This document shows positions 10,046-64,000 of a stretch of 64,000 nucleotides of DNA, piece after piece (positions within the stretch are counted from its first letter, which is position 1; each line of letters begins with the position of its first letter). The notes under the pieces were generated by a model, which saw only the letters and a list, made by a program, of their open reading frames with translations, ran no database searches and had not been told where the DNA came from. Both the position numbers and the translations under genes were made by a program. The stretch comes from a bacterium (lineage in GTDB: Bacteria; Patescibacteriota; Minisyncoccia; 2-02-FULL-40-12; IGHO2-12-FULL-4): assembly GCA_030647955.1 (NCBI GenBank), contig JAUSIQ010000003.1, positions 2,111-66,110 on the forward strand, written 5' to 3'.

Positions 10046-10062
10046 TTAATGGATTTTCGATT

Positions 10063-11625
10063 ATGTCCAATAAATATTTTATTACAACTGCGATTCCGTA
10101 TGTAAATGCTAACCCGCATCTGGGCCATGCTTTAGAATTGGTGCAAGGCGATGCTTTAGCGCGGTATCAGCACAATCTAGGAAAAGAAGTCTGGTTTCTG
10201 AATGGCACCGACGAAAATGCCTTGAAAAATGTGCAGTCGGCGGAAAAAGCCGGAGAAGAAGTTAGGCCATTTGTGGATCGCTACGCGGAAACTTTCAGAA
10301 AACTTAGCAAGACCCTCCATATTTCTAATGATGATTTTATCCGCACCACCGAAGAGCGGCATGTTAAAGGTGCGCAAAAACTTTGGCAGGCGTGTGCCGC
10401 GGCCGGAGATATTTATAAAAAGAAATACAAAGGGCTTTACTGTGTGGGCTGTGAAACTTTTTACACCGAAAAAGATTTATTGAATGGCCTTTGTCCTGAA
10501 CATAAAACGAAGCCGGAGGAAATCGAAGAAGAAAATTATTTCTTTAAGCTCGCGAAATATCAAAAAGAAATTTACAAATTAATTAAAAGCGATGAGCTGA
10601 AAATTATTCCTTCGTCCAAGAAAAACGAATTACTTTCTTTCATTGATCAAGGTTTGGAAGATTTTAGTATTTCACGCAGCCGAGAAAGGGCTAAGGATTG
10701 GGGTATTCCGGTTCCGGGAGACGACTCCCAGATTATTTACGTTTGGTTCGATGCTCTGTCGAATTACATTAATGCCATTGGTTACGGAACGGACGAGGCG
10801 AGGTTCAAAGCTTGGTGGCAGGAGAATTTAAATACCGCTCACGTGATTGGGAAGGGCATTACTCGATTTCATGCTATCTACTGGCCGGGTATGCTTTTAT
10901 CGGCAGGGTTGGCTTTGCCTAAAACAATTTATGTTCACGGCTATTTGACGATCGACGGAGAAAAAATCTCCAAGTCTTTGGGTAATGTGATCGATCCGTT
11001 TGAAGTGGTTAAAAAATACGGAGTTGATCCGGTGCGATATTTCTTATTGCGGGAAATTCCTTCTGGGGAAGATGGCGATTTCTCTTACAAGAAACTGGAG
11101 GACCGTTATCAGGCGGATTTAGCCAACGGGCTGGGTAATTTGGTACAGAGAGTTCTGACGCTGATCGAGAATGGTTTACTGGGTGAGGTGAACTATCTAA
11201 GTAATTTGGAGGACTTGGCTGTGCAGGAAGCGATTGTTAAAAGCAGAAAAAAATATGACGAAAGCTTTGAGGATTTTCGTTTACACGAGGCTTTGGGAGC
11301 AATATTTGATCTAGTCGGCTTTGCAAATAGCTATGTCAATGAGCACAAGCCTTGGGAGCTGGTTAAAATTCACCCCGTCAAATCCAGCGAAGCTGGTGCG
11401 CCAAAGGCGCAATTTGACGGGGCAAGCCCCGAACACTTCTTGAAAGTAATGATTAATCTGGTCAGGTTGAATTTAGAGATTGCGTTGTGGCTAAAACCAT
11501 TTTTACCGGAAACGGCCGATAAGATTTTAGAATCATTTGGATTCACGGGGAAAGATTTAGATCACCTTGATCATCAGAAATTAGTTATTAAAAAAGGAGC
11601 CGGACTCTTTCCGCGTCTAGGATAA
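10063..11625 (+). CDS. metG: Methionyl-tRNA synthetase (short form)
   Basis: HIGH-type motif PYVNANPHLGHA, KMSKS-type KISKSLGN, zinc knuckle CVGCETF...CPEH. Confidence 0.9.
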   Translation: MSNKYFITTAIPYVNANPHLGHALELVQGDALARYQHNLGKEVWFLNGTDENALKNVQSAEKAGEEVRPFVDRYAETFRKLSKTLHISNDDFIRTTEERHVKGAQKLWQACAAAGDIYKKKYKGLYCVGCETFYTEKDLLNGLCPEHKTKPEEIEEENYFFKLAKYQKEIYKLIKSDELKIIPSSKKNELLSFIDQGLEDFSISRSRERAKDWGIPVPGDDSQIIYVWFDALSNYINAIGYGTDEARFKAWWQENLNTAHVIGKGITRFHAIYWPGMLLSAGLALPKTIYVHGYLTIDGEKISKSLGNVIDPFEVVKKYGVDPVRYFLLREIPSGEDGDFSYKKLEDRYQADLANGLGNLVQRVLTLIENGLLGEVNYLSNLEDLAVQEAIVKSRKKYDESFEDFRLHEALGAIFDLVGFANSYVNEHKPWELVKIHPVKSSEAGAPKAQFDGASPEHFLKVMINLVRLNLEIALWLKPFLPETADKILESFGFTGKDLDHLDHQKLVIKKGAGLFPRLG

Positions 11626-12428
11626 TGTATATCGATTCTCATTCTCATCCACAATTTCCTCAATACGATCAGGACCGAGAGGAAATGATTACGCGCACCC
11701 TGCAAAGGGGTGTAAAAATGATTTGTGTAGGTACGGATTTGGAAATGTCTAAGAAGGCAGTGGAGTTGGCGGAGGGACAAGAAGGAATTTGGGCGAGTGT
11801 TGGTCTTCATCCTAATGATAATCTCGACGAGGTATTGGATATAGAAGAATATCGAAAACTTTTGGTGCATCCGAAAGTGGTGGCAGTGGGGGAGGTGGGT
11901 TTGGATTATTTTCGCACTACCGGGGAAGAAAATATTTTTAAGCAAAAAGATCGTTTTATTAAATTCTTAGAGCTTTCCAGGGAATCAGGCAAGCCGCTCA
12001 TTCTGCACTGTCGAGAAGCTTATCAAGACATGTTAGAAATGATCAGCTCAGCTGGAACACTGTTTGGCGGGTCGGCAGTGCGGGGAGTGTTGCATTCATT
12101 CACCTCTACTTGGGAAGTAGCTCAAAAATTTATTGATCTCGGTTTCTACATTGGTCTCAATGGCATTATTACCTTCCCTCCTTCGCGTAAAGCTACGGAA
12201 GGGCAAGCACCGAGCAGTTTAGATGAGGTAATAAAAAATATCCCCTTAGACAAATTACTTTTGGAAACCGATGCTCCGTATCTTTCTCCGATTCCGCATC
12301 GGGGAAAGAGAAATGAATCCAGTTACATAGAATTTGTGGCACAAAAAATCGCCCAAATGAAGGGCGAGTCCGTAGAAAAGGTGGCCGAAGAAACCACCAA
12401 GAATACTAAAAAATTATTTGGTATCTAG
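11625..12428 (+). CDS. tatD: TatD-family metal-dependent DNase/hydrolase
   Basis: MYIDSHSH...VGLHPND...GEVGLDY motifs; classic metG-tatD adjacency. Confidence 0.8.
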   Translation: MYIDSHSHPQFPQYDQDREEMITRTLQRGVKMICVGTDLEMSKKAVELAEGQEGIWASVGLHPNDNLDEVLDIEEYRKLLVHPKVVAVGEVGLDYFRTTGEENIFKQKDRFIKFLELSRESGKPLILHCREAYQDMLEMISSAGTLFGGSAVRGVLHSFTSTWEVAQKFIDLGFYIGLNGIITFPPSRKATEGQAPSSLDEVIKNIPLDKLLLETDAPYLSPIPHRGKRNESSYIEFVAQKIAQMKGESVEKVAEETTKNTKKLFGI

Positions 12429-12473
12429 ATTTGTAAAAGAGTCTAAAATCTCTTAAGATTTCAATATATCGTC

Positions 12474-14813
12474 ATGAAGTATAATCCCTCCAAAATTGAA
12501 AAAAAATGGCAGAAGACTTGGTTAAAAGAAGGAGTCTACGAGCCGAATTTTAAAAATCCCCGAGAGAAGGGTAAATTTTATAATCTAATGATGTTTCCTT
12601 ATCCTTCGGCCGAAGGGTTACACGTGGGAAATATGTACGCCTTCACGGGCAGTGATATTTACGGCCGCTTCAAGAGAATGGCGGGGCACGATGTTCTGGA
12701 GCCGATCGGGTTGGATGGTTTTGGGATTCACTCTGAAAATTACGCTATCAAAGTTGGAACGCATCCGGCGGATCAGACTAAAAAAAGCGAGAAAAACTTT
12801 TATCGCCAGCTGACGGAAATTGGCAATGGTTTTGCCTGGAAAGAAAAACTGGAAACTTATGATCCCGAATATTACAAATGGACGCAATGGCTTTTCATCC
12901 AAATGTTTAAAAACGGTTTGGTTTATCGCAAGAAGCAGCCGGTCAATTGGTGTCCTTCGTGTAAGACGGTTTTGGCGGACGAGCAGGTTATTCTTGCCCA
13001 TCGAAACCTTGGCGAAGTTGGGGGCGGAGAGTGTGAGCGGTGTGGAACGAAAGTAATTAAAAAAGATTTGGAGCAGTGGTTTTTCAAAATTACCGATTAT
13101 GCGGAGAGGCTTTTGAATAACTTGGAAGATATTGATTGGTCGGAAAAAATTAAAGTGGCCCAAAGAGCCTGGATTGGGAAAAGCGAAGGAGCGCTTTTGA
13201 AATTTTCGATTGCTAAATCTCAATCTGTTATCGATGTTTTTACGACCAGGGCAGATACTTTATACGGCGCAACTTATATGGTTTTAGCTCCAGAGCACCC
13301 TTTGGTTAATGAGCTTAAGTCGCAAATTACGAATTGGGATGAGGTGCAGGCTTATCGAGAAAAGGCCAAAGGCAAAACCGATATCGAGCGTACCGCGGAG
13401 GGCAAAGAAAAAACCGGTGTGGAACTGAAGGGAATCAAAGCGATTAATCCTGCCAATAATCAGGAAATTTCAGTGTGGATTGCGGATTATGTTTTAGCTG
13501 GTTATGGAACGGGAGCAATTATGGCGGTGCCTCAACACGATGAGCGGGATGCGGAATTTGCTAAGAAATTTGATCTGCCGTTCAGTGATGCGCCGTTAGT
13601 AGCTGTGGACGAAATTGTTAAAAAAGTTAGCGGCAAAAAAATTACGCAATATAGGTTACGTGATTGGTTGATTAGTCGTCAGCGCTATTGGGGTCCGCCC
13701 ATTCCGATGATTCATTGCGAGAAATGTGGCTGGCAGCCCGTACCGGAAAAAGATTTGCCTGTGAAGCTTCCTAAAATTGAAGATTTCAGACCAACCGGAA
13801 CCGATCAGTCTCCGTTAGCTTCGGTTGAAAAATTCTATAAAACGAAATGTCCAAACTGTAAGGGTGAGGCTCGAAGAGAAACGGATGTTTCCGATACTTT
13901 CTTGGATTCCGCGTGGTATTACCTACGTTATCCTTCAGCGAATCACAAAGAAGAAGCATTCGACCCTGACGTTACGAAAAAGTGGTTGCCGGTAGATATG
14001 TATATTGGTGGAGCGGAGCATGCCGTTTTGCATTTGCTCTATGTGCGCTTCGTGGCTATGGCTTTGCATGATTGGGGATTCTTAAATTTCGAGGAGCCGA
14101 TGACGCGCTTCCGAGCTCACGGACTGATCATTAAAGATGGAGCGAAGATGTCCAAGTCCAAGGGTAACGTGGTTAATCCCGATGAATATATTAAAAAATA
14201 TGGAGCGGATGCCCTGAGAATGTATCTAATGTTTTTAGGACCATTTGAACAGGGTGGTGATTTTCGCGATGAAGGCGTGGCCGGAATTACCCGCTTTTTG
14301 AACCGAGTATGGGCGTTAATAGATAAGGTGCAGAAAGAGGATGTCGCTGAAATTCAAAAAACGCTTCATCAAACTATTAAAAAAGTTACTGAAGATATCG
14401 AAGGCCTGCATTACAATACGGCTATTAGTCAGTTGATGATTTTGCTGCGAGAGATAGAGGATGTGGAAGTGATTTCTAGGTCGCAGTTCGAAATGGTCTT
14501 AAAGCTTTTGGCTCCTTTCGCCCCGCATATCACGGAAGAAATTTGGCGGACGGTATTAAAGAATAAAAAATCAATTCACCTGGAAGCGTGGCCGGAGTAT
14601 AACACTAAACACTTGGTAGAGAAGACGGCTAACCTGGTACTGCAAATTAACGGGAAAACTCGAGAGGTCATGGTTGTTGACCGGGATTTGTCTGAAGCTC
14701 AAGTAAAGGAGCTGGTTTTAGCTTCGGAAAAAATGCAAAGACATTTGGACGGGAAGACTATTAAGAAGTTTATTTACTTACCAAATCGATTGGTCAATAT
14801 TGTGACGGAGTGA
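12474..14813 (+). CDS. leuS: Leucyl-tRNA synthetase
   Basis: PYPSAEGLHVGN (HIGH-like), KMSKSKGN, LeuRS editing and zinc-finger regions. Confidence 0.9.
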   Translation: MKYNPSKIEKKWQKTWLKEGVYEPNFKNPREKGKFYNLMMFPYPSAEGLHVGNMYAFTGSDIYGRFKRMAGHDVLEPIGLDGFGIHSENYAIKVGTHPADQTKKSEKNFYRQLTEIGNGFAWKEKLETYDPEYYKWTQWLFIQMFKNGLVYRKKQPVNWCPSCKTVLADEQVILAHRNLGEVGGGECERCGTKVIKKDLEQWFFKITDYAERLLNNLEDIDWSEKIKVAQRAWIGKSEGALLKFSIAKSQSVIDVFTTRADTLYGATYMVLAPEHPLVNELKSQITNWDEVQAYREKAKGKTDIERTAEGKEKTGVELKGIKAINPANNQEISVWIADYVLAGYGTGAIMAVPQHDERDAEFAKKFDLPFSDAPLVAVDEIVKKVSGKKITQYRLRDWLISRQRYWGPPIPMIHCEKCGWQPVPEKDLPVKLPKIEDFRPTGTDQSPLASVEKFYKTKCPNCKGEARRETDVSDTFLDSAWYYLRYPSANHKEEAFDPDVTKKWLPVDMYIGGAEHAVLHLLYVRFVAMALHDWGFLNFEEPMTRFRAHGLIIKDGAKMSKSKGNVVNPDEYIKKYGADALRMYLMFLGPFEQGGDFRDEGVAGITRFLNRVWALIDKVQKEDVAEIQKTLHQTIKKVTEDIEGLHYNTAISQLMILLREIEDVEVISRSQFEMVLKLLAPFAPHITEEIWRTVLKNKKSIHLEAWPEYNTKHLVEKTANLVLQINGKTREVMVVDRDLSEAQVKELVLASEKMQRHLDGKTIKKFIYLPNRLVNIVTE

Positions 14814-20634: not shown

Positions 20635-21396
20635 GTGGCACGCATCATAAACATCTGTAACGAAAAAGGTGGAGTTGGTAAGACCACCACCACTATTAAC
20701 TTGGCTGCTTATCTTGCTGCTCTGGGAAAGTATGTTTTGGTTGTTGATCTTGACCCCCAGGCTAATGCTAGCGGTGGTTTGGGAGTGAAGGTAGCAGATG
20801 ATCATCTCAATATTTATCACTCTCTGGTGGGAAACGAAAGTCCAGGTTCTTATTTGAGAAAAACTGCTTTGTTCGGCTATGATCTTTTGCCAGCTTCGGC
20901 TAGTTTAGCTGGGGCGACGGTGGAATTGGTGAGTGTGGAGTCTAGAGAGTTTCGTTTAAAGAAGGCCCTCAACTCTATTCGTACTAATTACGATTACATT
21001 TTGATTGATTCTCCTCCTTCATTGGGCTTGCTGACCATTAATGGCTTGGCAGCCGCTGAAGAAGTTATTATTCCGGTGCAGTGTGAGTATTTTGCGCTCG
21101 AAGGATTGGGAAATTTGTTGCAAACCATTGAATTGGTACGCTCTTCTTTAAATCCACAATTGAAAATCGCCGGAGTATTGCTTACAATGTATGATAAGAG
21201 GAACAGATTAGCGCGCGCGGTAGTGAAAGAAGTGCAAACCAATTTTCCCGGCAGAGTTTTTGAAGCAGTTATTCCGCGTTCCATTTCTTTAGCGGAGGCT
21301 CCGAGTTTTGGAAAAACTATTTTACAATTCGATCCAGGTTCCAAAGCCGGCCGGGCTTATCGGCAATTAGCGGAGGAAGTTGTTAGAATAATCTAG
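20635..21396 (+). CDS. parA: Chromosome partitioning ATPase ParA/Soj
   Basis: Deviant Walker A ICNEKGGVGKTTTTINLA; GTG start. Confidence 0.9.
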   Translation: MARIINICNEKGGVGKTTTTINLAAYLAALGKYVLVVDLDPQANASGGLGVKVADDHLNIYHSLVGNESPGSYLRKTALFGYDLLPASASLAGATVELVSVESREFRLKKALNSIRTNYDYILIDSPPSLGLLTINGLAAAEEVIIPVQCEYFALEGLGNLLQTIELVRSSLNPQLKIAGVLLTMYDKRNRLARAVVKEVQTNFPGRVFEAVIPRSISLAEAPSFGKTILQFDPGSKAGRAYRQLAEEVVRII

Positions 21397-21478
21397 TTTA
21401 TCAAGTTTATAATGTTATAAAGTTTGTAAAGTTAAAATCTCTGACTTTAAAAACTTTACGAACTTGATGAACTTTTAA
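21397..21478. repeat. AT-rich palindromic intergenic element (family member A) between parA and parB
   Basis: Arms ATCAAGTTTATAA...TTTGTAAAGTT and AACTTTACGAACTTGATGAACTT are reverse complements; same motif family as copies at 31468, 47333, 47904, 57480, 59009, 59505. Confidence 0.7.
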
Positions 21479-35572: not shown

Positions 35573-38413
35573 ATGTCCCAATTATCTAACCCCACCCAAA
35601 ATAATAAAGGTCGAGAAGAAAATGTCACGACGAGTGTCGGCAACGGACATCATCCCGAAGAATTTAATGCGCAAACTCTCTTTAATCATGTGCCAGTCCT
35701 TTCGCCAAAAACACATCAAGGAGTGGGTTTAGTGTGGGATAGCAAGTTCTCCAAAGGAGATCCTTACCAAAGTATCCGCTGGGAAAAAAGAACCGCCAAA
35801 ATTACCAAGAGCAACGGCCAAATAGTGTTTGAGCAAAAAAATGTCGAGGTGCCGGATTTTTGGTCTCAAACCGCCACGGATATTGTGGCCTCGAAGTATT
35901 TTCGCCGACCATATGGGTCGGTTGACAAAGAGTCTAGCGCTAAGCAAATGATTGATCGAGTCGGCGACACCATCTCTGGATGGGGATGGAAAGATGGCTA
36001 TTTTGCTACCGAGCAGGATTATCTTAATTTCCGCAACGATTTAAAATGGATCTTGATTAACCAGTACGGCGCTTTTAATAGCCCGGTTTGGTTTAATGTG
36101 GGAGTTTATGAGCGTCCTCAGACTTCCGCTTGTTTTATCTTGGCCGTAGAAGACAATATGCAGTCAATTTTAGACTGGTATCGAGACGAGGGATGGATTT
36201 TTAAATATGGTTCAGGTGCGGGCACGAGCTTGTCTAAATTACGCTCATCTAAAGAATCTTTGTCTCGAGGTGGCCACTCTTCCGGCCCGGTTTCCTTTAT
36301 GAAGGGAGCGGATGGTATCGCCAACAGTATTCGCTCAGGTGGAGAGACACGCCGCGCCGCTAAAATGGTGGTGCTTAATGTGGATCATCCGGATATTAAA
36401 GATTTCATCTACTGTAAAAAAATTATCGAAGACATGACCAAGGTTTTGGTGCGTAGCGGCATTAAAGATTCTATTGCCGCCGATCTGTTTGATCCTTATG
36501 CCTTATTGCCTTACCAAAATGCCAACAACTCTGTACGCGTCACAGACGAATTTATGCGTGCGGTAGAAAACGACGAAGAGTGGGAATTAAAAGCGGTAAC
36601 GACCGGAGAGGTCTTAGAAAGAGTGCGTGCTCGCGAAGTGATGCGTTGGATTGCGGATGCCGCTTGGCATTCTGCTGACCCGGGCATGCAGTACGATACG
36701 ACGATCAATAACTGGCACACTGCTCCGAAAGCAGGAAGAATTAATGCTTCAAATCCTTGCTCGGAATATATGCACTTAGATAATAGCGCTTGTAACTTAG
36801 CTTCGATTAATTTGCTGAAATTCTTGCAGGCCGACGGTACTTTCAATGTCGATTTATACAAAAAAGCGATTGATACTTTTATCTTAGCCCAAGATATTCT
36901 GATTGATAACTCCTCTTTTCCTACTCCGAAAATTACCGAGAACGCTCGTAATTATCGAGAATTAGGCTTGGGATATGCTAATCTGGGAGCATTATTGATG
37001 ACGCTTGGTCTTCCTTATGATTCCGATCAGGGACGAGCTTTGGCGGGATTGATCACCTCTATTTTAACCGGAGAGGGTTATCGCATGTCGGCGGAAATTT
37101 CCAAAGCTGGCGGACCTTTCCGAGGCTATGCCCAGGATCGTGAGGGGATGCTCGGAGTAATCTGGAAGCATTATCGCGCCGCCGGTGATCTGGTGGAAAA
37201 TATTGACCAAACGGCTTTGATCAACGACTTTAAATTAAAATCTGAAGCCGTCAGTGTTTGGAAAGAAGCTTGGGAATTAGGAGAGCAGCATGGCTATCGC
37301 AACTCTCAAGCCACAGTTTTAGCCCCGACGGGAACCATCTCCTTCTTAATGGATTGTGTAACGACTGGGGTTGAACCGGAATTAGCTTTGGTGAAATATA
37401 AAAAATTAGTGGGAGGCGGAACTCTTAAATTAGTTAACTCCCAAGTTATGACGGCTTTGAAAAATTTGGGGTATCAGGAAGGAGAAATCGAGCAGATTAA
37501 TAAACACCTCTTAGAAAGAGAAACAATCGAGGGCGCGCCTGGATTTAAAGACGAACATTTACCGGTTTTCGACTGTTCGTTTAAAGCCGTAAACGGTCAG
37601 CGCAGTATTCAGTACATGGGCCATATTAAAATGATGGCCGCTGCGCAGCCTTTTATTTCCGGAGCGATTTCCAAAACCGTGAACTTGCCGAAAGACGCGA
37701 CCGTAGAAGAAATTGAGCAAGCTTTTATTGAGTCTTGGAGAGTAGGCTTAAAAGCGGTGGCCTTTTATCGCGATGAGAGTAAAACTATTCAGCCGCTGAA
37801 TACCTCGGATAAAAAAGATGGTCTAGTAGAAAAAATTAACGGATATACGCGGGTAAAATTACCTGATACTCGTCCTTCTCTCACCCATAAATTCTCGGTA
37901 GGCGGACACGAAGGTTACCTTACTATTGGTCTTTATCCGGATACGCAGAAAGTGGGAGAGACTTTTATCAGTATTGCTAAAGAAGGAAGCACCGTATCAG
38001 GCTTATTAGATGTGGTAGCGACATTGACCTCAATTTCGTTACAATCGGGAGTGCCGCTTAAAGTGTTGGTTAGAAAATTCAAAGACATGCGTTTTGAACC
38101 ATCCGGATTTACCAGTAGCGAAGAAGTGCCAATGGCGAAATCAATTATCGATTATATCTTCCGCTTCTTGGGGCAGAGATTCTTAAACGAAACTGACAAA
38201 GAGGAAATCTTCGGTCCGGGGATGGGAACGGTAAGTGCTCCTAGCCCAGTTGTTCCATTAGCTACTTTTGTTTCTACTCCCACTGTAACCGTACCGACTG
38301 TTGTGGCGGCTGCTACCGAGGCGATGGTTTGCGAGTGTGGATCGATTATGGTCAAAGCGGGATCATGCTACTCGTGTCCGAACTGCTTCTCAACTACAGG
38401 AGTTTGTAACTAA
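35573..38413 (+). CDS. nrdJ: Adenosylcobalamin-dependent ribonucleotide reductase, class II (monomeric NrdJ)
   Basis: Active-site region NPCSEYMHLDNSACNLASINL; C-terminal Cys-rich tail CECGS...CYSCPNC; 946 aa. Confidence 0.85.
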   Translation: MSQLSNPTQNNKGREENVTTSVGNGHHPEEFNAQTLFNHVPVLSPKTHQGVGLVWDSKFSKGDPYQSIRWEKRTAKITKSNGQIVFEQKNVEVPDFWSQTATDIVASKYFRRPYGSVDKESSAKQMIDRVGDTISGWGWKDGYFATEQDYLNFRNDLKWILINQYGAFNSPVWFNVGVYERPQTSACFILAVEDNMQSILDWYRDEGWIFKYGSGAGTSLSKLRSSKESLSRGGHSSGPVSFMKGADGIANSIRSGGETRRAAKMVVLNVDHPDIKDFIYCKKIIEDMTKVLVRSGIKDSIAADLFDPYALLPYQNANNSVRVTDEFMRAVENDEEWELKAVTTGEVLERVRAREVMRWIADAAWHSADPGMQYDTTINNWHTAPKAGRINASNPCSEYMHLDNSACNLASINLLKFLQADGTFNVDLYKKAIDTFILAQDILIDNSSFPTPKITENARNYRELGLGYANLGALLMTLGLPYDSDQGRALAGLITSILTGEGYRMSAEISKAGGPFRGYAQDREGMLGVIWKHYRAAGDLVENIDQTALINDFKLKSEAVSVWKEAWELGEQHGYRNSQATVLAPTGTISFLMDCVTTGVEPELALVKYKKLVGGGTLKLVNSQVMTALKNLGYQEGEIEQINKHLLERETIEGAPGFKDEHLPVFDCSFKAVNGQRSIQYMGHIKMMAAAQPFISGAISKTVNLPKDATVEEIEQAFIESWRVGLKAVAFYRDESKTIQPLNTSDKKDGLVEKINGYTRVKLPDTRPSLTHKFSVGGHEGYLTIGLYPDTQKVGETFISIAKEGSTVSGLLDVVATLTSISLQSGVPLKVLVRKFKDMRFEPSGFTSSEEVPMAKSIIDYIFRFLGQRFLNETDKEEIFGPGMGTVSAPSPVVPLATFVSTPTVTVPTVVAAATEAMVCECGSIMVKAGSCYSCPNCFSTTGVCN

Positions 38414-38704: not shown

Positions 38705-38793
38705 AACTGACCTCCTGAATACCTTAATTATATCATTTTTTATTCACCGCTGTCAATGTTTAAATTAGTCTACATTTTGCTATATTTTCTTTC

Positions 38794-40311
38794 ATGCATA
38801 AGTCGCAACTTCTTTTCATCTTATTAATCAGTTTTATTATTGGTATCGCTTTGGGATCTTTTGTGGAGATTCCGTCTTTGTATCTCAGGCTCGCTTTTAT
38901 TCCGTCCCTGGTGGCTATCGGTATTGCCTGGCGAAGAAGCTGGAAGACGGTTTTTGGTGCGATGGTCGCGGCGGTGTTTGTCTTTGGTCTTTTGCGTATT
39001 GGCGATTTTCGTCCGACCTCCACTTATCTCCAGCATTTTGCCGACACCAATTTTAAAACTACTTTATATGGCTATATCGATAGTGAACCGACTCAAAAAG
39101 GATCGTCACAAGAATTTGTTTTGCGAGTAAGAAGAATCCAGGCTCCAGACTACACTATTCCGGAAGTGATTGATGAGAAGATTTTGGTCATCGCTGATAC
39201 TTACCCTCAACGCGTCTACGGAGAAAAATTGTCTTTAGAGGGCAGTATTAAGTTGCCGAAAAGTTATGATGATTTTGATTACATTGCTTATCTGGCCAAG
39301 GACCAGATTTTCACTATCGTTTTTCGTCCGGAGATGCAGATCATTACTCCTCAGCTTGGCTTTTGGGAGAGTACCCGCATTAAATTTTTTAGCGGCATTT
39401 TTAAATTAAAGAGTGTTTTTGAGGAAAAAGTGGGATTGGCGGTGGTAGAGCCGCAAGCCTCTTTTCTTAATGGAATTTTATTGGGATCACGACAAAACAT
39501 TCCGCAAGATTTAAAAGATGATTTTGCTAAAGTGGGAGTTTCGCATATTTTGGCCATCTCTGGGTATAATATTGCAATTATTGGAGAAGTAATCTCTTGG
39601 GTTCTAATATTCTTTATGCGGCGCAAGGTGGCTTTTTGGTTTTCTCTTCTCGCCATCTTTATTTTCACCATTTTAACCGGTGCTTCGGCTTCGGTGATTC
39701 GTGCGGCGTTGATGGGCGGCCTGGTGTTGCTGGCCAATAACTCGGGAAGAATTTATAACTCTAAAAATGCTTTAACGCTCGTGGCTTTTTTGATGATTTT
39801 TATTAACCCTCTAATTTTGCGTTACGACATTGGTTTTCAGCTTTCTTTTATGGCCACCTTGGGTCTTTTGTATATCTCTCCCATTTTTAAAATCTTTTTA
39901 AAAAAGATTCCGGATTACTTCAATTTGAAAGAGATATTGGCGATGACTGTTTCCGCGCAGGTGGCCGTCCTGCCTTTATTGCTTTATTACTTCCATAATT
40001 TTTCTTTAATTGCCGTTTTGGCCAATGTGGTGGTGTTGCCTTTCATTCCCGCGGCCATGTTGCTCGGCTTTGTAACCGGAGTAGGGGGAATGATTTGGAG
40101 TGTTCTCGGGACAATTTTAGGGGCACCGGCTTGGGCGCTGACTGCTTTTATTATTTTTCTTATTCGTTTTTTCGCCGACATTCCTGGACTGTCTTTTCAA
40201 ATTTTACTCTCTTGGCCGGGGGCAGTGTTGATGTACACGCTTCTCTTTGGAGGATTGAGTTACTGGTCTTGGCGTCAGCGTAAAAAAGGCTTCGAATTTG
40301 AAGAGGCCTAA
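38794..40311 (+). CDS. comEC: ComEC/Rec2-family DNA internalisation channel (competence domain only)
   Basis: Multi-TM protein with the competence motif VGVSHILAISGYNIAIIG; no C-terminal MBL domain in this ORF. Confidence 0.75.
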   Translation: MHKSQLLFILLISFIIGIALGSFVEIPSLYLRLAFIPSLVAIGIAWRRSWKTVFGAMVAAVFVFGLLRIGDFRPTSTYLQHFADTNFKTTLYGYIDSEPTQKGSSQEFVLRVRRIQAPDYTIPEVIDEKILVIADTYPQRVYGEKLSLEGSIKLPKSYDDFDYIAYLAKDQIFTIVFRPEMQIITPQLGFWESTRIKFFSGIFKLKSVFEEKVGLAVVEPQASFLNGILLGSRQNIPQDLKDDFAKVGVSHILAISGYNIAIIGEVISWVLIFFMRRKVAFWFSLLAIFIFTILTGASASVIRAALMGGLVLLANNSGRIYNSKNALTLVAFLMIFINPLILRYDIGFQLSFMATLGLLYISPIFKIFLKKIPDYFNLKEILAMTVSAQVAVLPLLLYYFHNFSLIAVLANVVVLPFIPAAMLLGFVTGVGGMIWSVLGTILGAPAWALTAFIIFLIRFFADIPGLSFQILLSWPGAVLMYTLLFGGLSYWSWRQRKKGFEFEEA

Positions 40312-44846: not shown

Positions 44847-45734
44847 TTACTTTTTAGCCGTCAGAGACTTTTTCTCTTGGGCCATGCGGTCTAAAATACT
44901 TCTTAGCATTACATAGGCCTGATCTTCGTGTCGAAAATTAGTCGAAATATTCTCCTTGCCTTTTAGTATACCTTGAATCAAAGTGAGAGCGGTGGTTAGT
45001 TTTTTACTTGCTTCCCCGGAAGAGAAAGGAATGAGTCGAGCTAATTGCAATCCGATTTCTTCTAAAAACTGTCTTTGTACTTGATGAGTGGCTAGTTCTT
45101 CTCTTTTGTTTTCTACAGATAGCTCTAATAAACTTTGATATGTTTTGGTGTCGGCTGCGAGCACTACGCGAGGGATGTGCAGTAGAGGCTCTTTGAAATC
45201 TTCTTGCGCTTCGGATTGAAAGTATTTCACTGTGCTTAATCTGCCTTCCTCGACTTCCTTCTTAATTTTTAATAATTTGCCGGTGAGATATTCTTCGTCT
45301 TCGGTGGAAGCCACATCTATCGCTAAAGCTAAGCGAGAAACGCCATCGTGATCTACTAGCTCAATTACCAGATCTACTCCATTGGCGATATCATCATAGG
45401 TCGATGTTTTTACGGTAAAGGCGTTGTCCCCAAACCAGTTATTTAATTCACTTTGTACGAAGATGAGAGCTTCTAGAATTTTCCCCCTTCGATTTCTTGA
45501 TCTTTCTTGTTGATTAAACTTGCCTTGCCGATCGGCTACATAGGCCTGATCGTGAGCAATCTCTTTAGCTGGATATTTGTCTTCAAATTTGCGGATATCA
45601 ATAGCGGCTTCTTCTGCTTGTAAAACAAAAGCCTCGTAGGCCTTTGTTTCGAGCTCTTCTAGATGAGCCCTTCTTTCCGCTGGCAAAAGTTTTTCACCCA
45701 TATTAAGTGTTAAAAACCTTTGTATTTGTCCCAA
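44847..45734 (-). CDS. Hypothetical acidic protein (295 aa), co-oriented with rpmB and tRNA-Pro
   Basis: Long ORF; no recognisable motif. Confidence 0.45.
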   Translation of the reverse strand: MGQIQRFLTLNMGEKLLPAERRAHLEELETKAYEAFVLQAEEAAIDIRKFEDKYPAKEIAHDQAYVADRQGKFNQQERSRNRRGKILEALIFVQSELNNWFGDNAFTVKTSTYDDIANGVDLVIELVDHDGVSRLALAIDVASTEDEEYLTGKLLKIKKEVEEGRLSTVKYFQSEAQEDFKEPLLHIPRVVLAADTKTYQSLLELSVENKREELATHQVQRQFLEEIGLQLARLIPFSSGEASKKLTTALTLIQGILKGKENISTNFRHEDQAYVMLRSILDRMAQEKKSLTAKK

Positions 45735-45738
45735 GTCT

Positions 45739-45885
45739 AAGGCAAAAGATGAGTATTGAGCGAGACGTATATGAATACGGCGAGCTCAAACGGAATCTTT
45801 TAACGCAGGAATTGGGCAAACCTGAAAGGCTTAAATTCCGTAGAGCCCTATATCTTCGGGCTCCGGAATTTAAGTGCAGAGGTTT
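45739..45885 (+). repeat. Copy 2 of the duplicated conserved element (70 nt identical to 564-633, ~27 nt more at ~75%), followed by a different 11-bp-stem hairpin
   Basis: Exact match; hairpin GGCTTAAATTCCG...CGGAATTTAAGTGC with inner GAGCCC/GGGCTC stem. Confidence 0.6.
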
Positions 45886-45888
45886 TTA

Positions 45889-46068
45889 TTATTTGGTAAG
45901 AGTTTTGATGCAAGAGGTGCAAATGCGTAGGCGAGTACCGTCAATCATGGCCCACTGGAGATTGGGACTCTTTTTATAGCGATTTACTGGATTATAATTA
46001 CCACGCAATAGTTTGCGCTTGTTTGCCATCATCGATTTTTTGCCGCATTTGGGACAACGGTTGGCCAT
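45889..46068 (-). CDS. rpmB: 50S ribosomal protein L28 (zinc-ribbon form), 59 aa, absent from the ORF track
   Basis: Minus-strand translation MANRCPKCGKKSMMANKRKLLRGNYNPVNRYKKSPNLQWAMIDGTRLRICTSCIKTLTK fits the L28 pattern (C..CGK...GN...R..PNLQ...) with a Cys4 ribbon. Confidence 0.7.
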   Translation of the reverse strand: MANRCPKCGKKSMMANKRKLLRGNYNPVNRYKKSPNLQWAMIDGTRLRICTSCIKTLTK

Positions 46069-46920: not shown

Positions 46921-47334
46921 ATGCCGACATTTAACCAACTATTAAAGAAACCCCGCAAGAAGCTTAAGGCGAAGACTAAGTCGCCGGCTTTGGCGCACAG
47001 TTTTAACACGGTTTTGAATCGTCCGGTTTTCCATGATTCTCCTTTTAAGCGTGGTGTGGCCTTGAGTGTTAAGACCACCACTCCCAAGAAGCCGAACTCT
47101 GCTTTAAGAAAAATCGCCCGCTTGCGTCTTACTAATGGTATGGAAGTGACCGCTTACATTCCCGGAGTAGGACACAATCTCCAAGAGCACTCTGTTGTCA
47201 TGATTCGTGGTGGAAGAGTTAAGGATTTGCCTGGTATTCGTTACCACATTGTCCGTGGCGTTTTAGACTCGTCCGGAGTAGAGGGTCGCAAACAAGAGAG
47301 AAGTAAATACGGAGCCAAACGGCCGAAAAAATAA
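46921..47334 (+). CDS. rpsL: 30S ribosomal protein S12
   Basis: [14 protein letters not shown]...; S12 signature throughout. Confidence 0.95.
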
Positions 47335-47424
47335 GTTCATCAAGTCCATCAGGTTATAAAGTTCATAAAGTGGAAAACAAATTATAGAACTTTAAAAACT
47401 TGATAACTTTACAAACTTTTAACT
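47333..47424. repeat. AT-rich palindromic intergenic element (family member C), overlapping the rpsL stop codon
   Basis: AAGTTCATCAAGTCCATCAGGTTATAAAGTTCATAAAGTGG...AACTTTAAAAACTTGATAACTTTACAAACTTTTAACT; 92 nt identical to copy D. Confidence 0.75.
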
Positions 47425-47430: not shown

Positions 47431-47898
47431 ATGCGCAGACCAATAAAGAAAAAGAATTTCCAAGAGCCAGATACCAAATACTCCAGCATGCTGGTGGCTC
47501 GTTTGATTAACCAAGTCATGCAAGCGGGAAGAAAGACTGTGGCGCGTCGCTTGGTTTACGGAGCAATGGAAGTGGCTGCAGAAAAATTAAAGAAACCGGC
47601 TTTGGAAGTCGTTGAAACTGCTTTAGAAAATGCCGGACCACAACTAGAACTGCGCTCTCGCCGTATCGGTGGAGCGAATTATCAGGTTCCTTACGAAGTA
47701 CGGGGAGATCGCCGGGTCACCTTGGCTTTGCGTTGGATCGTTGGGTCTGCTCAAAATCAGAAGGGGAAGGGTATGCAGGAAAAGTTAGCCGAAGAACTCA
47801 TCAATGCTGTTAATAATACTGGTAACGCGGTTAAAAAGAAGCAAGACATGCATCGCATGGCGGAAGCCAATAAGGCTTTTGCTCACTTTGCCTGGTAA
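47431..47898 (+). CDS. rpsG: 30S ribosomal protein S7
   Basis: S7 signature. Confidence 0.95.
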
Positions 47899-47903
47899 AT
47901 AAC

Positions 47904-47996
47904 CAAGTTCATCAAGTCCATCAGGTTATAAAGTTCATAAAGTGGAAAACAAATTATAGAACTTTAAAAACTTGATAACTTTACAAACTTTTAACT
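47904..47996. repeat. AT-rich palindromic intergenic element (family member D) between rpsG and fusA; identical to C
   Basis: 92-nt identity with 47333-47424. Confidence 0.75.
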
Positions 47997-57479: not shown

Positions 57480-57543
57480 AGTAAAGCTGCCAAAAGGAAT
57501 CTTACTTTATGAACTTGAAGAACTTTATAACTTGATAAACTAG
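57480..57543. repeat. AT-rich palindromic intergenic element (family member E, shorter, opposite orientation) between rpsQ and rplN
   Basis: Contains ACTTTATGAACTTGAAGAACTTTATAACTTGATAAACT, the reverse-complement orientation of the AAGTTCATAAAGT unit. Confidence 0.6.
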
Positions 57544-57546
57544 TTT

Positions 57547-57912
57547 ATGATTCAATTACGATCCATCGTTACTGTAGCAGATAATAGCGGAGCCAAAAAA
57601 GTTGGTGTCTTTAAGGTATTGGGCGGAACTCGCAAGCGCTATGCTCAACTGGGCGATGTCGTCGTGGTATCCGTTAAAGAAGCGGAGCCCCGTAAGCAAG
57701 TTAAGAAAAAAGATGTCTTACGAGCGTTAGTGGTTCGTCAGCGACAAAACTTCCGACGAGCAGATGGTAGTTATGTGCGCTTTGATGAAAACGCGGTTGT
57801 AATTTTAGAAGGTAAGGAGCCCAAGGGAGGAAGAATTTTCGGTCCCATTCCTCGTGAGATTAAAGAGCGCGGCTATGATACGATTGCTTCCTTAGCCCAA
57901 GAGATTGTCTAA
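57547..57912 (+). CDS. rplN: 50S ribosomal protein L14
   Basis: L14 signature. Confidence 0.95.
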   Translation: MIQLRSIVTVADNSGAKKVGVFKVLGGTRKRYAQLGDVVVVSVKEAEPRKQVKKKDVLRALVVRQRQNFRRADGSYVRFDENAVVILEGKEPKGGRIFGPIPREIKERGYDTIASLAQEIV

Positions 57913-58822: not shown

Positions 58823-59008
58823 ATGGCGAAAGAATCAACTAAGGCGCGAGCCAAAAAGAAACCCAAATATTCCAGCCGGATTGTCCGACGCTGTTTTATC
58901 TGCGGAAGAAAATACGGTTATATGCGCAAGTTCGATTTGTGTCGTATGCATTTCAGAGAATTGGCTAGTGAAGGATTGCTGCCAGGTATTACAAAATCAT
59001 CTTGGTAA
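58823..59008 (+). CDS. rpsZ: 30S ribosomal protein S14 type Z (zinc-binding)
   Basis: 61 aa, CFICGRK...CRMHFRE, ends ...SSW. Confidence 0.9.
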   Translation: MAKESTKARAKKKPKYSSRIVRRCFICGRKYGYMRKFDLCRMHFRELASEGLLPGITKSSW

Positions 59009-59097
59009 GAGAAGTTCATCAAGTTTATAAAGTTATAAAGTTCATAAAGTAGAAGGATCAAGTCTTAAAACTTTACGGACTTTTCACTTTATAAACT
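59009..59097. repeat. AT-rich palindromic intergenic element (family member F) between rpsZ and rpsH
   Basis: GAGAAGTTCATCAAGTTTATAAAGTTATAAAGTTCATAAAGTAGAA...AAAACTTTACGGACTTTTCACTTTATAAACT; near-identical to G. Confidence 0.75.
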
Positions 59098-59105: not shown

Positions 59106-59504
59106 ATGTATATTGTTTCCGACATGTTAATAAGAATCAAAAACGCGCAGGCGGCTCGAAAAGAGCGGCTTTTGATTCCGTTCTCCAAGATGAAATGGGA
59201 GATTGCCAAAGTCCTTAAAGAGGCGGGCTTTATTCAAGACTTTGAGAGAAGAAAAAAGAAAATAAAAAAGACCGAGCATGCTTTTATTGAAGTTAAGTTG
59301 GAGGTAACGGCAGGAGATGTGGCTATTTCTGAAGTAAAAATTATCAGCAAACCATCGAGACGGGTCTATATCAAAAAGAGTGAAATTCGACCAGTCTTAG
59401 GAGGTTATGGCATCGCGATTCTCTCTACTCCGAAAGGAGTAATGACGGGAGAAGAAGCCAAGAAGAATAACTTAGGAGGGGAATGGTTAGCTGAGATATG
59501 GTAA
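59106..59504 (+). CDS. rpsH: 30S ribosomal protein S8
   Basis: S8 signature. Confidence 0.95.
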   Translation: MYIVSDMLIRIKNAQAARKERLLIPFSKMKWEIAKVLKEAGFIQDFERRKKKIKKTEHAFIEVKLEVTAGDVAISEVKIISKPSRRVYIKKSEIRPVLGGYGIAILSTPKGVMTGEEAKKNNLGGEWLAEIW

Positions 59505-59603
59505 GAGAAGTTCATCAAGTTTATAAAGTTATAAAGTTCATAAAGTAGAAAGATCAAATCTTAAAACTTTAAAAACTTTACGGACTTTTCACTTTATAAA
59601 CTA
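59505..59603. repeat. AT-rich palindromic intergenic element (family member G) between rpsH and rplF; equals F plus a 10-nt internal duplication
   Basis: Differs from F by 3 single-nucleotide substitutions plus the 10-nt insertion AAAACTTTAA; the preceding TGGTAA (last codon + stop) is also shared with the rpsZ junction. Confidence 0.75.
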
Positions 59604-61549: not shown

Positions 61550-62809
61550 ATGGAGCGTTTGCTAAAAATTTTCAAAATCAAAGATCTCCGCTACAAAATT
61601 CTCTTTGTGGTGGGTATTTTGGTAGTTTCTCGTATTGCTTCGACTATTCCGATTCCCAGTGTGGATGCGGATCGTTTGCGTGAATTCTTTGCCAATAACC
61701 AACTCTTCGGTTTGATCAGTACGTTTACGGGCGGAGGATTAGCCACGCTTTCGGTGGCCATGTTAGGACTCGGTCCTTACATTACCGGTTCGATTATTAT
61801 GCAGTTGTTGACGATGGTCTTTCCTCCTTTAGAGCAGATGTATAAATACGGAGGAGAAGCAGGACGCGCTAAATTTAATCAATTCTCTCGAATGCTGACA
61901 GTGCCCTTAGCTTTCTTGCAAGGCTATGCATTTATTTCTTTGCTAGCTCGGCAAGGAGTACTGCAGCCTTTGTCTATGGGGCAGTGGGCGAGTTCGCTTT
62001 TGGTAGTAGCCGCTGGGGCGGTGTTCTTGATGTGGTTAGGAGAATTGATCACGGAGAAGAATATTGGCAACGGTATTTCTTTATTAATCTTCGCCGGTAT
62101 TGTTTCCGGTTTTCCGGCCAGCTTTAGTCAGACCTTATCTATTTTCGATCGTTCTCAATTATTTATGTATATCGGATTTGCCGCAGTGGCCCTAGTGGTT
62201 ATCGCTGGAGTAGTCTACTTAACGGAAGCACAGAGAAATATTCCCATTAACTACGCTAAAAAAGTTCGTGGATCCAAAGTTTATGGAGGAGTGTCCACTT
62301 ACTTGCCGATGCGCGTGAATAACGCCGGAGTTATGCCGATCATTTTCGCTTTATCGATTCTGCTCTTTCCGGGCATGATTGCTAACTTCTTTGCCAACTC
62401 TTCGGTGAGCTTTATTAGTAATCTGGCCAACTTCTTCAATAGTTTTATTCAGAACCAGTTTTTTTATAGCTTGGCTTACTTCATTCTTGTGGTGGTCTTT
62501 ACTTACTTTTACACTGCCGTCACCTTTGATCCCAAGTCTATTTCCGAAAATATTCAAAAGCAGGGCGGCTATATTCCTGGAATTAGACCGGGTCAGGCCA
62601 CCACTCAATTCTTGGAACACTTGCTTAATCGTATTACCTTAGTGGGGGCCGTCTTTCTGGGTATTATCGCTATCTTGCCGAATATTGTACAGGCTTTCAC
62701 CGGTATTACTGCCTTTACGGTAGGAGGTACCTCAATATTGATCGTAGTGTCGGTGGTGCTGGAAACGATGAAGCAGTTAGACGCCCAGATCTCAATGTAC
62801 GAGTACTAG
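61550..62809 (+). CDS. secY: Protein translocase subunit SecY
   Basis: 10-TM SecY signature. Confidence 0.95.
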   Translation: MERLLKIFKIKDLRYKILFVVGILVVSRIASTIPIPSVDADRLREFFANNQLFGLISTFTGGGLATLSVAMLGLGPYITGSIIMQLLTMVFPPLEQMYKYGGEAGRAKFNQFSRMLTVPLAFLQGYAFISLLARQGVLQPLSMGQWASSLLVVAAGAVFLMWLGELITEKNIGNGISLLIFAGIVSGFPASFSQTLSIFDRSQLFMYIGFAAVALVVIAGVVYLTEAQRNIPINYAKKVRGSKVYGGVSTYLPMRVNNAGVMPIIFALSILLFPGMIANFFANSSVSFISNLANFFNSFIQNQFFYSLAYFILVVVFTYFYTAVTFDPKSISENIQKQGGYIPGIRPGQATTQFLEHLLNRITLVGAVFLGIIAILPNIVQAFTGITAFTVGGTSILIVVSVVLETMKQLDAQISMYEY

Positions 62810-62823
62810 GAACCTTTGCGATA

Positions 62824-62866
62824 AAAAACCAGAAGCCCCGAAGATTAGGGGCTTTTCTGGTTTTTT
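62824..62866 (+). terminator. Strong intrinsic terminator after secY (AACCAGAAGCCCC-GAAGATTA-GGGGCTTTTCTGGTT plus TTTTTT)
   Basis: 15-bp stem and T-run seen directly. Confidence 0.8.
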
Positions 62867-63139
62867 CTCCCTAAAGGGTTTGCTCCATTTCTTTGTTAAA
62901 ATCTCCGTCTGAGACTCACCGTACTAACGTACGTTTCGTCTCAATACTCGATTTTGCCGCGAACTGGAGCAAACGCAAAGGTTCTGATGATTCTCAATAC
63001 TGGATTTTAGGCAAACGAGAAAATTTTTAGAAATTAGTCTCGATCATCACTGCTCATAATTTACGTGTAAATATTTCTCATAATTTAGATTTTTTTCATT
63101 GAAAATAAGGCCGAAAGGGCCTTTTTTTCATCTTCATTT
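62867..63139 (+). ncRNA. Candidate small structured RNA/non-coding spacer between the secY terminator and a second terminator (AAGGCC-GAAA-GGGCCTT plus TTTTT at 63117-63139)
   Basis: 10-bp long-range stem GGTTTGCTCCA...TGGAGCAAAC (62879-62975), inner GAGAC/GTCTC stem, then its own terminator; no ORF. Confidence 0.25.
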
Positions 63140-63187
63140 TCGGTTCATTATGAGGGCCTATTATGAGGCCACGAGGGTATATACCCC

Positions 63188-63216
63188 TTGACAGCACTGT
63201 TATAAGGGTTTATAAT
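63188..63216 (+). promoter_or_regulatory. Perfect sigma70 consensus promoter TTGACA-17-TATAAT driving the GC-rich downstream gene
   Basis: TTGACA 63188-63193, 17-nt spacer, TATAAT 63211-63216; SD GAGAAGGAGA then ATG at 63275. Confidence 0.55.
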
Positions 63217-63274
63217 ATATAGATGAGTAGTACCTTGCATAACTAGCATCCCCAACGGGGGAGAAGGAGACGGT

Positions 63275-64000
63275 ATGAAGTTCTGGATTTCAGCAGTTTT
63301 GGTCGCTTGTTTGGTCCTCCCAGTGGGGATGGTCCAGGAAGCGGCTGCGCAGGTGCAGGCCAAGAAAGCGGCTCCGGTGAAGAAGAAAACGACCCTCAGG
63401 AGGGTTGTTGCACCCGAGCTTCCGCTTAACGCCTACGAGACGTACTCGGAGTGCGAGCAGGCGCTCAAGCAGAAGAGGGGCTATTACGTGCCCACCTTCT
63501 TCGGAGAGAGAGGACGGAAGCCGAAACGGCCCGTGGCCTCCACAAGGGCTTTGGAAGCGGATGGTTGCGCCTATCTAAAGGTAGCCGGCGGAATGTACGC
63601 CTGGGTACCTCAGAAGAAGGGGACGCTTTACGACTATGATGCCGAGTATCATCCGATTCGTCGGCATGATTGCGGCAATTCTGTCGTGGAGATTCGCTAT
63701 CCTAAGGCCGAGCCGGTGTTAAGAGCGATTGTGGCTGCTGAGGCCGAGCCTCGTGCTGAAGCAGAGCCTGTGCCACCTGCCGAGGCTCCGCCTGTCTTCA
63801 CTTCCACGCCGGCTGTACCGGTGAAGGTGAGGCAGGATGGAGTGGTCAACATTGTTGGAAATAACAACGAGGTTGACTTCAGGAGCATTAAGGTCATTGA
63901 ACGAGTCCATCCGGTTGTCGTAGAAAGGCACGGTATGTCTACCGGCACCAAATGGGTGATTGGCGGTGTCGCGGCCGGCATCGTTGGTGGGCTCGTGTAC
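63275..64000 (+). CDS. GC-rich (~58%) secreted/membrane hypothetical protein, 3'-truncated by window end; likely horizontally acquired
   Basis: ORF open from ATG 63275 to window end (>241 codons). Signal peptide MKFWISAVLVACLVLPVGMVQEAAAQ; C-terminal hydrophobic segment; Ala/Pro/Glu-rich linker. Codon usage unlike the rest of the window. Confidence 0.5.
   Translation, partial: MKFWISAVLVACLVLPVGMVQEAAAQVQAKKAAPVKKKTTLRRVVAPELPLNAYETYSECEQALKQKRGYYVPTFFGERGRKPKRPVASTRALEADGCAYLKVAGGMYAWVPQKKGTLYDYDAEYHPIRRHDCGNSVVEIRYPKAEPVLRAIVAAEAEPRAEAEPVPPAEAPPVFTSTPAVPVKVRQDGVVNIVGNNNEVDFRSIKVIERVHPVVVERHGMSTGTKWVIGGVAAGIVGGLVY

Follow-up and report, generated by a model that had tools for sequence, protein, structure and literature searches.

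Bacteria of the Candidate Phyla Radiation (CPR, or Patescibacteria) are believed to lead a life attached to other microbes, and to our knowledge few of their attachment proteins are known. Among described systems, the closest to the locus treated here are the sortase-dependent loci of monoderm bacteria and the adhesins built from DUF11/CLIPPER repeats (PF01345, TIGR01451). The locus lies at the end of a 64,000-nt stretch of DNA from a Patescibacteria genome (GenBank assembly GCA_030647955.1, contig JAUSIQ010000003.1, positions 2,111 to 66,110 of the forward strand; hereafter the window) and begins with a GC-rich open reading frame (ORF), called gene X, that follows secY. Its base composition also invites comparison with genomic islands acquired by horizontal transfer. 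The non-coding sequence in front of it recalls the ERIC, REP/BIME, BOX and RUP elements, short (~100-200 nt) imperfect palindromes that occur between genes in several copies and in either orientation.

With a probability of roughly 0.65, the end of the window falls within a cell-surface module of three genes (X, an adhesin and a sortase) that a Yanofskybacteria-like CPR subclade carries between secY and adk. In the proposed model, transcription of the ribosomal-protein operon would end at a strong terminator, which also forms part of a ~175-nt repeat specific to this genome. A second terminator would insulate the next unit, and X would be transcribed from its own sigma-70 promoter and translated by way of a strong Shine-Dalgarno sequence. 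The protein would then be exported through Sec, display a three-cysteine domain of ~100 residues at the tip of a Pro/Ala/Glu stalk, and stay attached to the envelope through a C-terminal xxSTG motif, a hydrophobic helix and a basic tail. The sortase whose gene lies two places further downstream would most likely process or anchor X, as it would the large DUF11/CLIPPER adhesin of the intervening gene, and the probable role of the module is in attaching the cell to a host or a surface. The anatomy of the locus, its synteny, the protein family, the company of sortase genes and the deviant composition are direct observations, whereas sortase processing, surface display and a role in adhesion are inferred. 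The locus suggests that a CPR bacterium carries a compact, strongly promoted surface module, and it brings to light an unannotated protein domain present in ~100 sequence clusters.

Gene order between secY and adk

In the window, secY occupies 61550-62809 on the plus strand and encodes 419 amino acids; an identical product matches Pfam SecY and is 69-81% identical to SecY of Yanofskybacteria/Paceibacteria metagenome-assembled genomes (MAGs). The gene closes an S10-spc ribosomal-protein cluster of typical form in which L30 is absent between S5 and L15, a trait of CPR bacteria. The host is an ultra-small CPR/Patescibacteria bacterium whose ribosomal-protein operon ends at secY, and 465 nt of non-coding sequence lie between the secY stop and the start of X.

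A preliminary description of the window had proposed that the ribosomal-protein operon is interrupted after secY, where adk-map-infA-rpmJ-rpsM-rpsK would be expected, and that X is an insertion. The interruption is confirmed, and the insertion is borne out by the 11 closest GTDB species (named Yanofskybacteria, Paceibacterota or Parcubacteria; secY 69-81% identical), in which adk-map comes directly after secY or other small inserts do. The adk gene starts ~20-135 nt past the secY stop in nine of them. The remaining two, also Yanofskybacteria, have unrelated small genes between secY and adk (L009, 7260-8628; L012, 7260-9041). The secY/adk junction is therefore ancestral and tolerant of insertions, and it seems to be a recurrent insertion site. 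The expected gene order holds among relatives for adk-map and fails from infA onward. Genes infA/rpsM follow map in Bacillota and Bacteroidia loci only and were seen downstream of map in none of the Patescibacteria loci examined, so they are not to be expected here. Searches of the spacer by tblastn and blastn revealed no pseudogene remnants of adk or map.

The window stops short of the end of X, and the missing part was obtained from Logan contig L001 (4845 bp, run SRR13727527), the product of an independent assembly, which encodes the exact SecY product. This contig is 100% identical to the window over all 3334 overlapping nt across the junction and extends 1.5 kb beyond it. There X is complete, with 263 amino acids, and is followed by a GC-rich terminator hairpin, a TTGACG-17-TATAAT promoter and the gene of a large secreted protein of native GC.

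A word-indexed search with X returned the record of the probable source MAG and two Logan proteins (P0002 and P0003; 47-51% global identity), whose genes likewise follow secY on contigs from other samples (L002 and L003). The order in L003 is secY, X, a DUF11/CLIPPER protein of 827 amino acids, sortase, adk and map. A continuation into adk-map at normal GC, which the preliminary description had considered, is thus found in this relative, only after three inserted genes. In L002, secY is followed by an unrelated minus-strand ORF, X and a large protein. That ORF (4415-4918) encodes 167 amino acids with a weak cysteine-dioxygenase-like PHROG match (E = 2.4e-5) and no Pfam match, and it has no counterpart in the window. 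The spacer between secY and X is not conserved (~100-140 nt in L003, 1.7 kb in L002). The large protein after X in L001 is homologous to the CLIPPER protein of L003 (53-59% identity).

Divergence within the module parallels that of secY. SecY is 87% identical between the window and either L002 or L003 and 93% between the latter two. The corresponding values for window-L002, window-L003 and L002-L003 are 51%, 47% and 63% for X and 59%, 59% and 63% for the adhesin. All three genes give the same branching, a weak test with three taxa. At four-fold sites the secY of the window is 37-39% identical to those of L002 and L003, which is near saturation; the shared insertion is therefore old and predates a deep split.

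The sortase of the window genome was not found on the source contig; it is carried by another contig, L037, which shares its sample and run with L001. It is 61% identical to the L003 sortase. Ahead of it, L037 encodes the C-terminal end of a CLIPPER protein (65% identity to its L003 counterpart) with GGVPTGSE, a transmembrane (TM) segment and KRR. Because this CLIPPER end and sortase match L003, the order X-adhesin-sortase almost certainly holds in the window genome too. Both assemblies break in the Thr/Pro repeat of the adhesin, so no continuous sequence joins L001 and L037. From these comparisons, the locus is best read as a lineage-specific, vertically inherited three-gene surface module, and not as a chimera or a recent import.

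Protein X and the sortase connection

NCBI annotates part of X (P0001, Q7S32_00555; window 63533-64000) as a hypothetical protein of 177 amino acids that starts at an internal GTG (Val87) and so lacks the signal peptide as well as the N-terminal half of the conserved domain. The ATG at 63275 is favoured over this GTG by the orthologs. The signal peptide and Ala/Pro/Glu linker mentioned in the preliminary description are legible in the translation (Table 1). Its view of X as a secreted, surface-exposed protein agrees with the signal peptide and C-terminal anchor predicted here. The end of the signal peptide is kept in the orthologs (PVGM[VI]QEAAA). A lipoprotein reading (LVAC, residues 9-12) was rejected; the Cys is too near the N-terminus and absent from the orthologs. 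Between the linker and the C-terminal motif lies a short conserved NEV-DFR segment. Within the motif G220, S222, T223 and G224 are invariant across the three orthologs, and the two orthologs of the window protein read GWSTG. Past the window, KKDKK and a short tail with PRP at its end follow the TM helix.

A second word-indexed search, with the domain profile, yielded two proteins only, and it was an exhaustive HMMER profile search of 1.84 billion cluster representatives that exposed the family. It comprises 98 representatives at E<=1e-3 and 28 at E<=1e-10, all of which match residues 46-146. Typical members have 200-460 amino acids, with the domain right behind the signal peptide and a Pro-rich region after it. 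C60, Y71, P73, E94, C98 and C133-G-N (part of a DCGN motif) are invariant in the family, and A63, L93, R130 and D132 nearly so. AlphaFold2, supplied with 40 aligned sequences, models one helix and six strands, with a predicted local distance difference test (pLDDT) score of 92-98 for residues 51-140.

Scans of X gave a best E of 0.57 against Pfam, no match in NCBIfam and, among PHROGs, a match to the TM segment only (E = 0.007). A profile search of the PDB returned nothing at E<=1, and the best Foldseek hit of the model in the PDB had E = 0.17. The conserved domain of X is undescribed, without a match in Pfam, NCBIfam, PHROGs or the PDB. Scans of genome collections and metagenomes with peptide patterns of the family found no confirmed relative.

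The locus is a sortase-associated surface-protein locus at an unusual site, with X so far unannotated. Three distant loci of the family (L034, L035 and L036) each have a sortase gene immediately upstream of the X relative, and in two of them, L034 and L035, a CLIPPER gene lies downstream of it. These CLIPPER proteins bear xPxTG-TM-basic signals (PKTGG or PPTGA, a helix and basic residues). In the window clade the sortase gene stands two genes downstream of X in L003 and after the adhesin in L037. The C-termini of X and the adhesin are strikingly alike within the same genomes. In the window sample the adhesin has GGVPTGSE-TWVIAALLSAGLAGGLSIF...KRR and X has HGMSTGTK-WVIGGVAAGIVGGLVYFLVKKDKK; in L003 the pair reads GGVQTGGE-TWVIAAA and GGWSTGAK-VATVAL. 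Because of this likeness there is moderate evidence that X of the window clade may be a substrate of the co-encoded sortase. Of the parts of such a substrate, X has a Sec signal peptide, the hydrophobic segment WVIGGVAAGIVGGLVYFLV and the basic tail KKDKK. Its motif contains the T-G pair and lacks the L-P of LPXTG.

Base composition and competing readings

The GC content of X (0.571) and its GC at third codon positions (GC3; 0.636) stand apart from 0.440 +/- 0.026 and 0.439 +/- 0.040 in 58 non-overlapping ORFs of the window (z = 5.0 and 4.9), as the preliminary description had noted in giving it ~58% GC and deviant codon usage. In 300-nt windows GC is 0.37-0.45 before X and 0.54-0.60 from ~63200 on, and no 1-kb bin elsewhere in the window exceeds 0.484. 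Directly past the stop codon of X in L001, GC is 0.36-0.48. With native GC on both flanks and a drop at the stop codon, the GC-rich stretch corresponds to exactly one coding sequence, and X is a true outlier in both composition and codon usage.

Under the codon usage of the window the same protein would have an expected GC of 0.516 and GC3 of 0.464, so amino-acid composition and codon choice each account for about half of the excess. Two-fold codons show the largest shift: AAG (77% in X against 36% in the window), GAG (74% against 37%), CAG (100% against 50%) and TTC (83% against 29%). The shift spans the signal peptide through the tail and extends beyond the low-complexity linker.

The excess recurs across the family. 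Total GC of X is above that of its neighbours in nine of nine loci, and GC3 is clearly above in seven. In the window clade, the neighbours of X have GC 0.44-0.46 in the window, 0.43-0.49 in L002 (X 0.594, GC3 0.646) and 0.44-0.51 in L003 (X 0.545, GC3 0.613). Elsewhere, X and neighbours have GC 0.566 and 0.38-0.47 in L034, 0.642 (GC3 0.83) and 0.45-0.55 in L035, 0.503 and 0.37-0.46 in L036, 0.604 and 0.53-0.55 in L038, and 0.631 (GC3 0.78) and 0.46-0.55 in L039. The member in L033 (GC 0.646, GC3 0.81) sits in a four-gene island with neighbours of ~0.43-0.50 around it. The genes adjoining X, linked sortase and adhesin genes included, are native in GC except in L033 and L039.

The L033 island (6931-12480) encodes a protein of 351 amino acids, the X-family member, a protein of 237 amino acids and a Big_2 surface protein. 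Its GC is 0.65-0.68 and its GC3 0.81-0.88, inside a polysaccharide-synthesis cluster of GC3 ~0.50, and it looks like either a real transfer or a chimeric contig.

Taken over the nine loci, the high GC and odd codon usage fit better with a persistent property of the family than with the mark of a recent transfer. What maintains it is a small puzzle on what shapes codon usage gene by gene. One speculative answer, to which we give little credence, is that the domain travels with sortase/adhesin loci and keeps GC-rich codons in many low-GC genomes whose mutational bias runs the other way. The cause would be a gene-specific GC-biasing process, such as intense recombination and GC-biased gene conversion at a host-interaction locus, or repeated re-import from GC-rich partners. 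If this were true, a local GC excess would mark host-engagement genes of episymbiotic CPR bacteria from sequence alone.

The preliminary description had favoured recent horizontal acquisition, in which a GC-rich gene of foreign origin, with a promoter of its own, would only recently have come to lie after secY. Such an event would agree with a composition and codon usage ~5 standard deviations off the window ORFs, with the absence of X after secY in the 11 related species, with the unrelated inserts in L009 and L012 that show the junction to tolerate insertions, and with the L033 member, which looks truly transferred between its flanks. It is very unlikely nonetheless, given orthologs at the same position in two more genomes with a divergence congruent with that of secY, secY four-fold sites that place the insertion before a deep split, and the family-wide GC excess. 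Integrase, transposase, tRNA and flanking direct repeats were not found around X, the co-inserted adhesin and sortase are of native GC, and tblastn against phage and plasmid sequences gave no match.

An older transfer fares slightly better and is still improbable. If the ancestor of the three genomes took X from a very GC-rich donor (GC3 >0.8), amelioration might be incomplete: at ~0.66 substitutions per four-fold site per lineage, a rough estimate, an excess that was large at first could still amount to +0.1 to +0.2 today, and family members of GC3 0.78-0.83 exist (L033, L035 and L039). Enrichment at all nine loci would then require many independent transfers, X alone is deviant while the linked sortase/CLIPPER genes are native in L003, L034 and L035, and no GC-rich donor lineage was identified. 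As for a mis-join between the ribosomal operon of a CPR bacterium and a DNA fragment from an organism of higher GC, of which the preliminary description had warned, the abrupt GC change near a repeat-bearing intergenic region at the window end would suit it. This chimera is effectively refuted by the identity of the contig from the other assembler (Logan) across the junction and into native-GC genes, by the recurrence of the secY-X adjacency in two other samples, and by a GC-rich stretch that coincides with one coding sequence.

On function, the main rival to the sortase-substrate reading is that X is a single-pass (type-I) membrane protein that aids the sortase/adhesin system, for example through folding or through thiol chemistry of its three cysteines, or acts as an independent receptor. 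We regard it as somewhat unlikely, since in the window clade the G-[MW]-S-T-G-x-K before the helix closely mirrors the adhesin sorting signal of the same genomes. In its favour, many family members have a TM helix with basic flanks and a cytoplasmic tail and no TG motif, and C60, C98, C133 and the DCGN motif are invariant.

Several observations weigh against the proposed surface module or its sortase-dependent anchoring. The GMSTG of X deviates from the canonical LPXTG, and more distant members of the family end in a simple TM anchor or in other domains that lack the TG motif, some of them lacking even the helix. With such a motif and such relatives, sortase processing is unproven and X could be a type-I membrane protein. 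The tail after the X helix is conserved within the clade (...G.(A/G)PRP), which is unexpected for a cleaved sorting signal and also speaks for the membrane-protein rival. No sortase is in view at L033 and L039, the searches described above gave no structural or sequence homolog that would assign a function to X, and the sortase of the window genome is known from the short contig L037, linked by homology and sample identity. As to composition, GC3 does not rise in two of the nine loci (L036 and L038), and an ancient transfer with incomplete amelioration still fits the excess in X. For the scanning of genomes, the vertically inherited module carries a caution: a sharp GC jump and a perfect promoter beside a conserved operon are not in themselves proof of mis-assembly or of newly acquired foreign DNA.

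Non-coding elements and comparison with described systems

Table 1. Positions of gene X, its protein features and the surrounding regulatory and repeat elements in the window
Feature	Position	Strand	Remarks
Gene X (GC-rich)	63275-64000 (window part, 242/263 codons); stop at window-equivalent 64066	+	full ORF from contig L001
Sec-type signal peptide (predicted)	63275-63349, residues 1-25	+	MKFWISAVLVACLVLPVGMVQEAAA, predicted AAA/Q cleavage; by inspection
Conserved extracellular domain, ~100 residues	63410-63712, residues 46-146	+	family profile and alignments
Pro/Ala/Glu-rich linker (stalk)	63713-63829	+	AAEAEPRAEAEPVPPAEAPP; length varies in orthologs; low pLDDT
GMSTG motif	63932-63946, residues 220-224 of 263	+	candidate sortase cleavage motif before TM helix
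C-terminal TM helix, start	63953-64000	+	WVIGGVAAGIVGGLVYFLV; helix 223-241 in model
Terminator 1 (secY terminator)	stem 62831-62856, A-/T-tracts spanning 62823-62866	+	also hairpin P2 of the ~175-nt repeat
Terminator 2	stem 63107-63123, T-run to 63130	both strands score	AAGGCCGAAAGGGCCTT + T7
Perfect sigma-70-type promoter, TTGACA-17 nt-TATAAT	63188-63216	+	exact match
Shine-Dalgarno sequence	63260-63269	+	GGAGAAGGAG; strong; 5 nt ahead of ATG 63275; read from sequence
Two direct copies of CTCATAATTTA	63053-63087	+	in AT-rich spacer; sole exact copies in window
Two direct copies of ATTATGAGG	63147-63168	+	reverse complement of CTCATAAT; 20-40 nt upstream of -35 box
~175-nt three-way-junction repeat	62810-62984	+	closing stem 62810-62820/62974-62984, hairpins P2 and P3
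Long imperfect hairpin P3	62871-62983	+	minimum free energy -38.3 kcal/mol, z = -5.8
Repeat copies two and three	545-715 and 45708-45881	both -	extended alignment
Second repeat family	21385-21465, 47326-47424, 47898-47996, 57497-57548, 59003-59083, 59499-59588		intergenic

The preliminary description had placed a strong terminator at the end of secY, then structured non-coding sequence with a terminator of its own (63117-63139), and finally a TTGACA-17-TATAAT promoter that makes X a separate, strongly promoted transcription unit. A terminator scan finds the first terminator directly after secY, with nine pairs and a T-run. The A-tract and T-tract on both sides of its stem mean that it could act in both directions. 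The second is present as well, with the earlier coordinates ~10 nt too high, and it probably insulates the downstream promoter of X. The coordinates given for the promoter were exact, and the reading of X as a separate, strongly promoted unit is supported.

Sites matching all 12 promoter positions number two in the 64-kb window against 0.07 expected from block shuffles. The other, TTGACA-18-TATAAT, lies at 38727-38756 on the minus strand between ORFs 35573-38413 and 38794-40311. A perfect TTGACA also stands upstream of the L002 ortholog, and GGAGGAGG-like Shine-Dalgarno motifs precede the orthologs. The octamer CTCATAAT/ATTATGAG occurs in four copies, two direct and two inverted, that flank terminator 2 and end 20 nt before the -35 box. 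The copies upstream of this box could be a candidate regulator site, for an operator or an activator; the octamers are not present upstream of the orthologs. The spacer at 62985-63187 is AT-rich and has no unusual structure (z = -1.15 for 62984-63135).

The structure predicted earlier after secY is pronounced: 62806-62990 folds with a minimum free energy of -79.1 kcal/mol (z = -9.0) and constitutes one copy of the ~175-nt repeat, closed by a perfect 11-nt inverted repeat. A covariance model of the repeat matches three sites of the window (E 1e-24 to 1e-30). Positions 62876-62979 match 555-658 on the opposite strand, and the core of the third copy is 45734-45832. A hairpin equivalent to the GC-rich P2, with a similar GAAGAT loop, is found in copy 45708-45881. 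Over the three copies there are 58 pairs with 91.8% of cells paired, and 16 of the 58 pairs changed on both sides, compared with 6.1 +/- 2.0 in shuffles (0/500 reach 16) and <=2 when partners were slid.

Copy 45708-45881 follows an L28-like gene (45889-46068, minus strand) in the same orientation as the secY copy follows secY, while copy 545-715 is antisense to its neighbouring genes. The listed TTG start of ORF 44847-45734 overlaps copy 45708-45881, so its true start is probably an internal ATG near 45701. An Rfam scan of 62700-63400 at E<=10 gave chance-level matches only, covariance models detected no copy outside the window genome in 13-15 related loci, and the repeat core had 0 matches in a JGI metagenome scan. 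A miniature inverted-repeat transposable element was considered and rejected: the terminal stems differ between copies (they covary) and no duplicated flanks appear in the alignment, a weak test with three copies. The unit is interpreted as an intergenic repeat of the ERIC/REP kind, specific to this genome and conserved in structure, that also serves as a terminator.

An unrelated second repeat family, AT-rich and 80-100 nt long (AAGTTCATCAAGTTTATAAAGTTATAAAGTTCATAAAGT...), occupies other intergenic gaps of the window. Genes of ribosomal-protein operons are normally packed tightly; several copies of this family are found inside the operon, for example between rpsN and rpsH, between rpsH and rplF, and before rplN.

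Like ERIC, REP/BIME, BOX and RUP, the ~175-nt repeat is multi-copy and intergenic, keeps its pairing by compensatory changes and coincides with a terminator. It differs in having no sequence relation to them and no Rfam family, in forming a three-way junction instead of a single hairpin, and in being known from the window genome only.

With genomic islands from horizontal transfer, X shares atypical GC and codon usage and a position where most relatives lack it. Unlike them, it is a single coding sequence with no mobility genes, att-like repeats or tRNA, its position is conserved with congruent divergence in three genomes, and the GC enrichment across its family points to a property of the gene and not to its history.

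The resemblance to DUF11/CLIPPER adhesins concerns a conserved neighbour, the gene after X in L003, L034, L035 and the window's sample (where its C-terminal part is seen), whereas X itself has no DUF11/CLIPPER repeat.

From the sortase-dependent loci of monoderm bacteria the module departs in its motifs (G[MW]STG in X and VPTG/VQTG in the adhesin instead of LPXTG), in a sortase below every class-specific NCBIfam cutoff, in an X passenger domain outside described families, and in its CPR host and place within the secY-adk junction. It shares with those loci an X with a predicted N-terminal signal peptide and a C-terminus of motif, helix and basic tail, a sortase in the same small cluster (TIGR01076, 50 bits, above cutoff), and a large repeat adhesin as the putative co-substrate.

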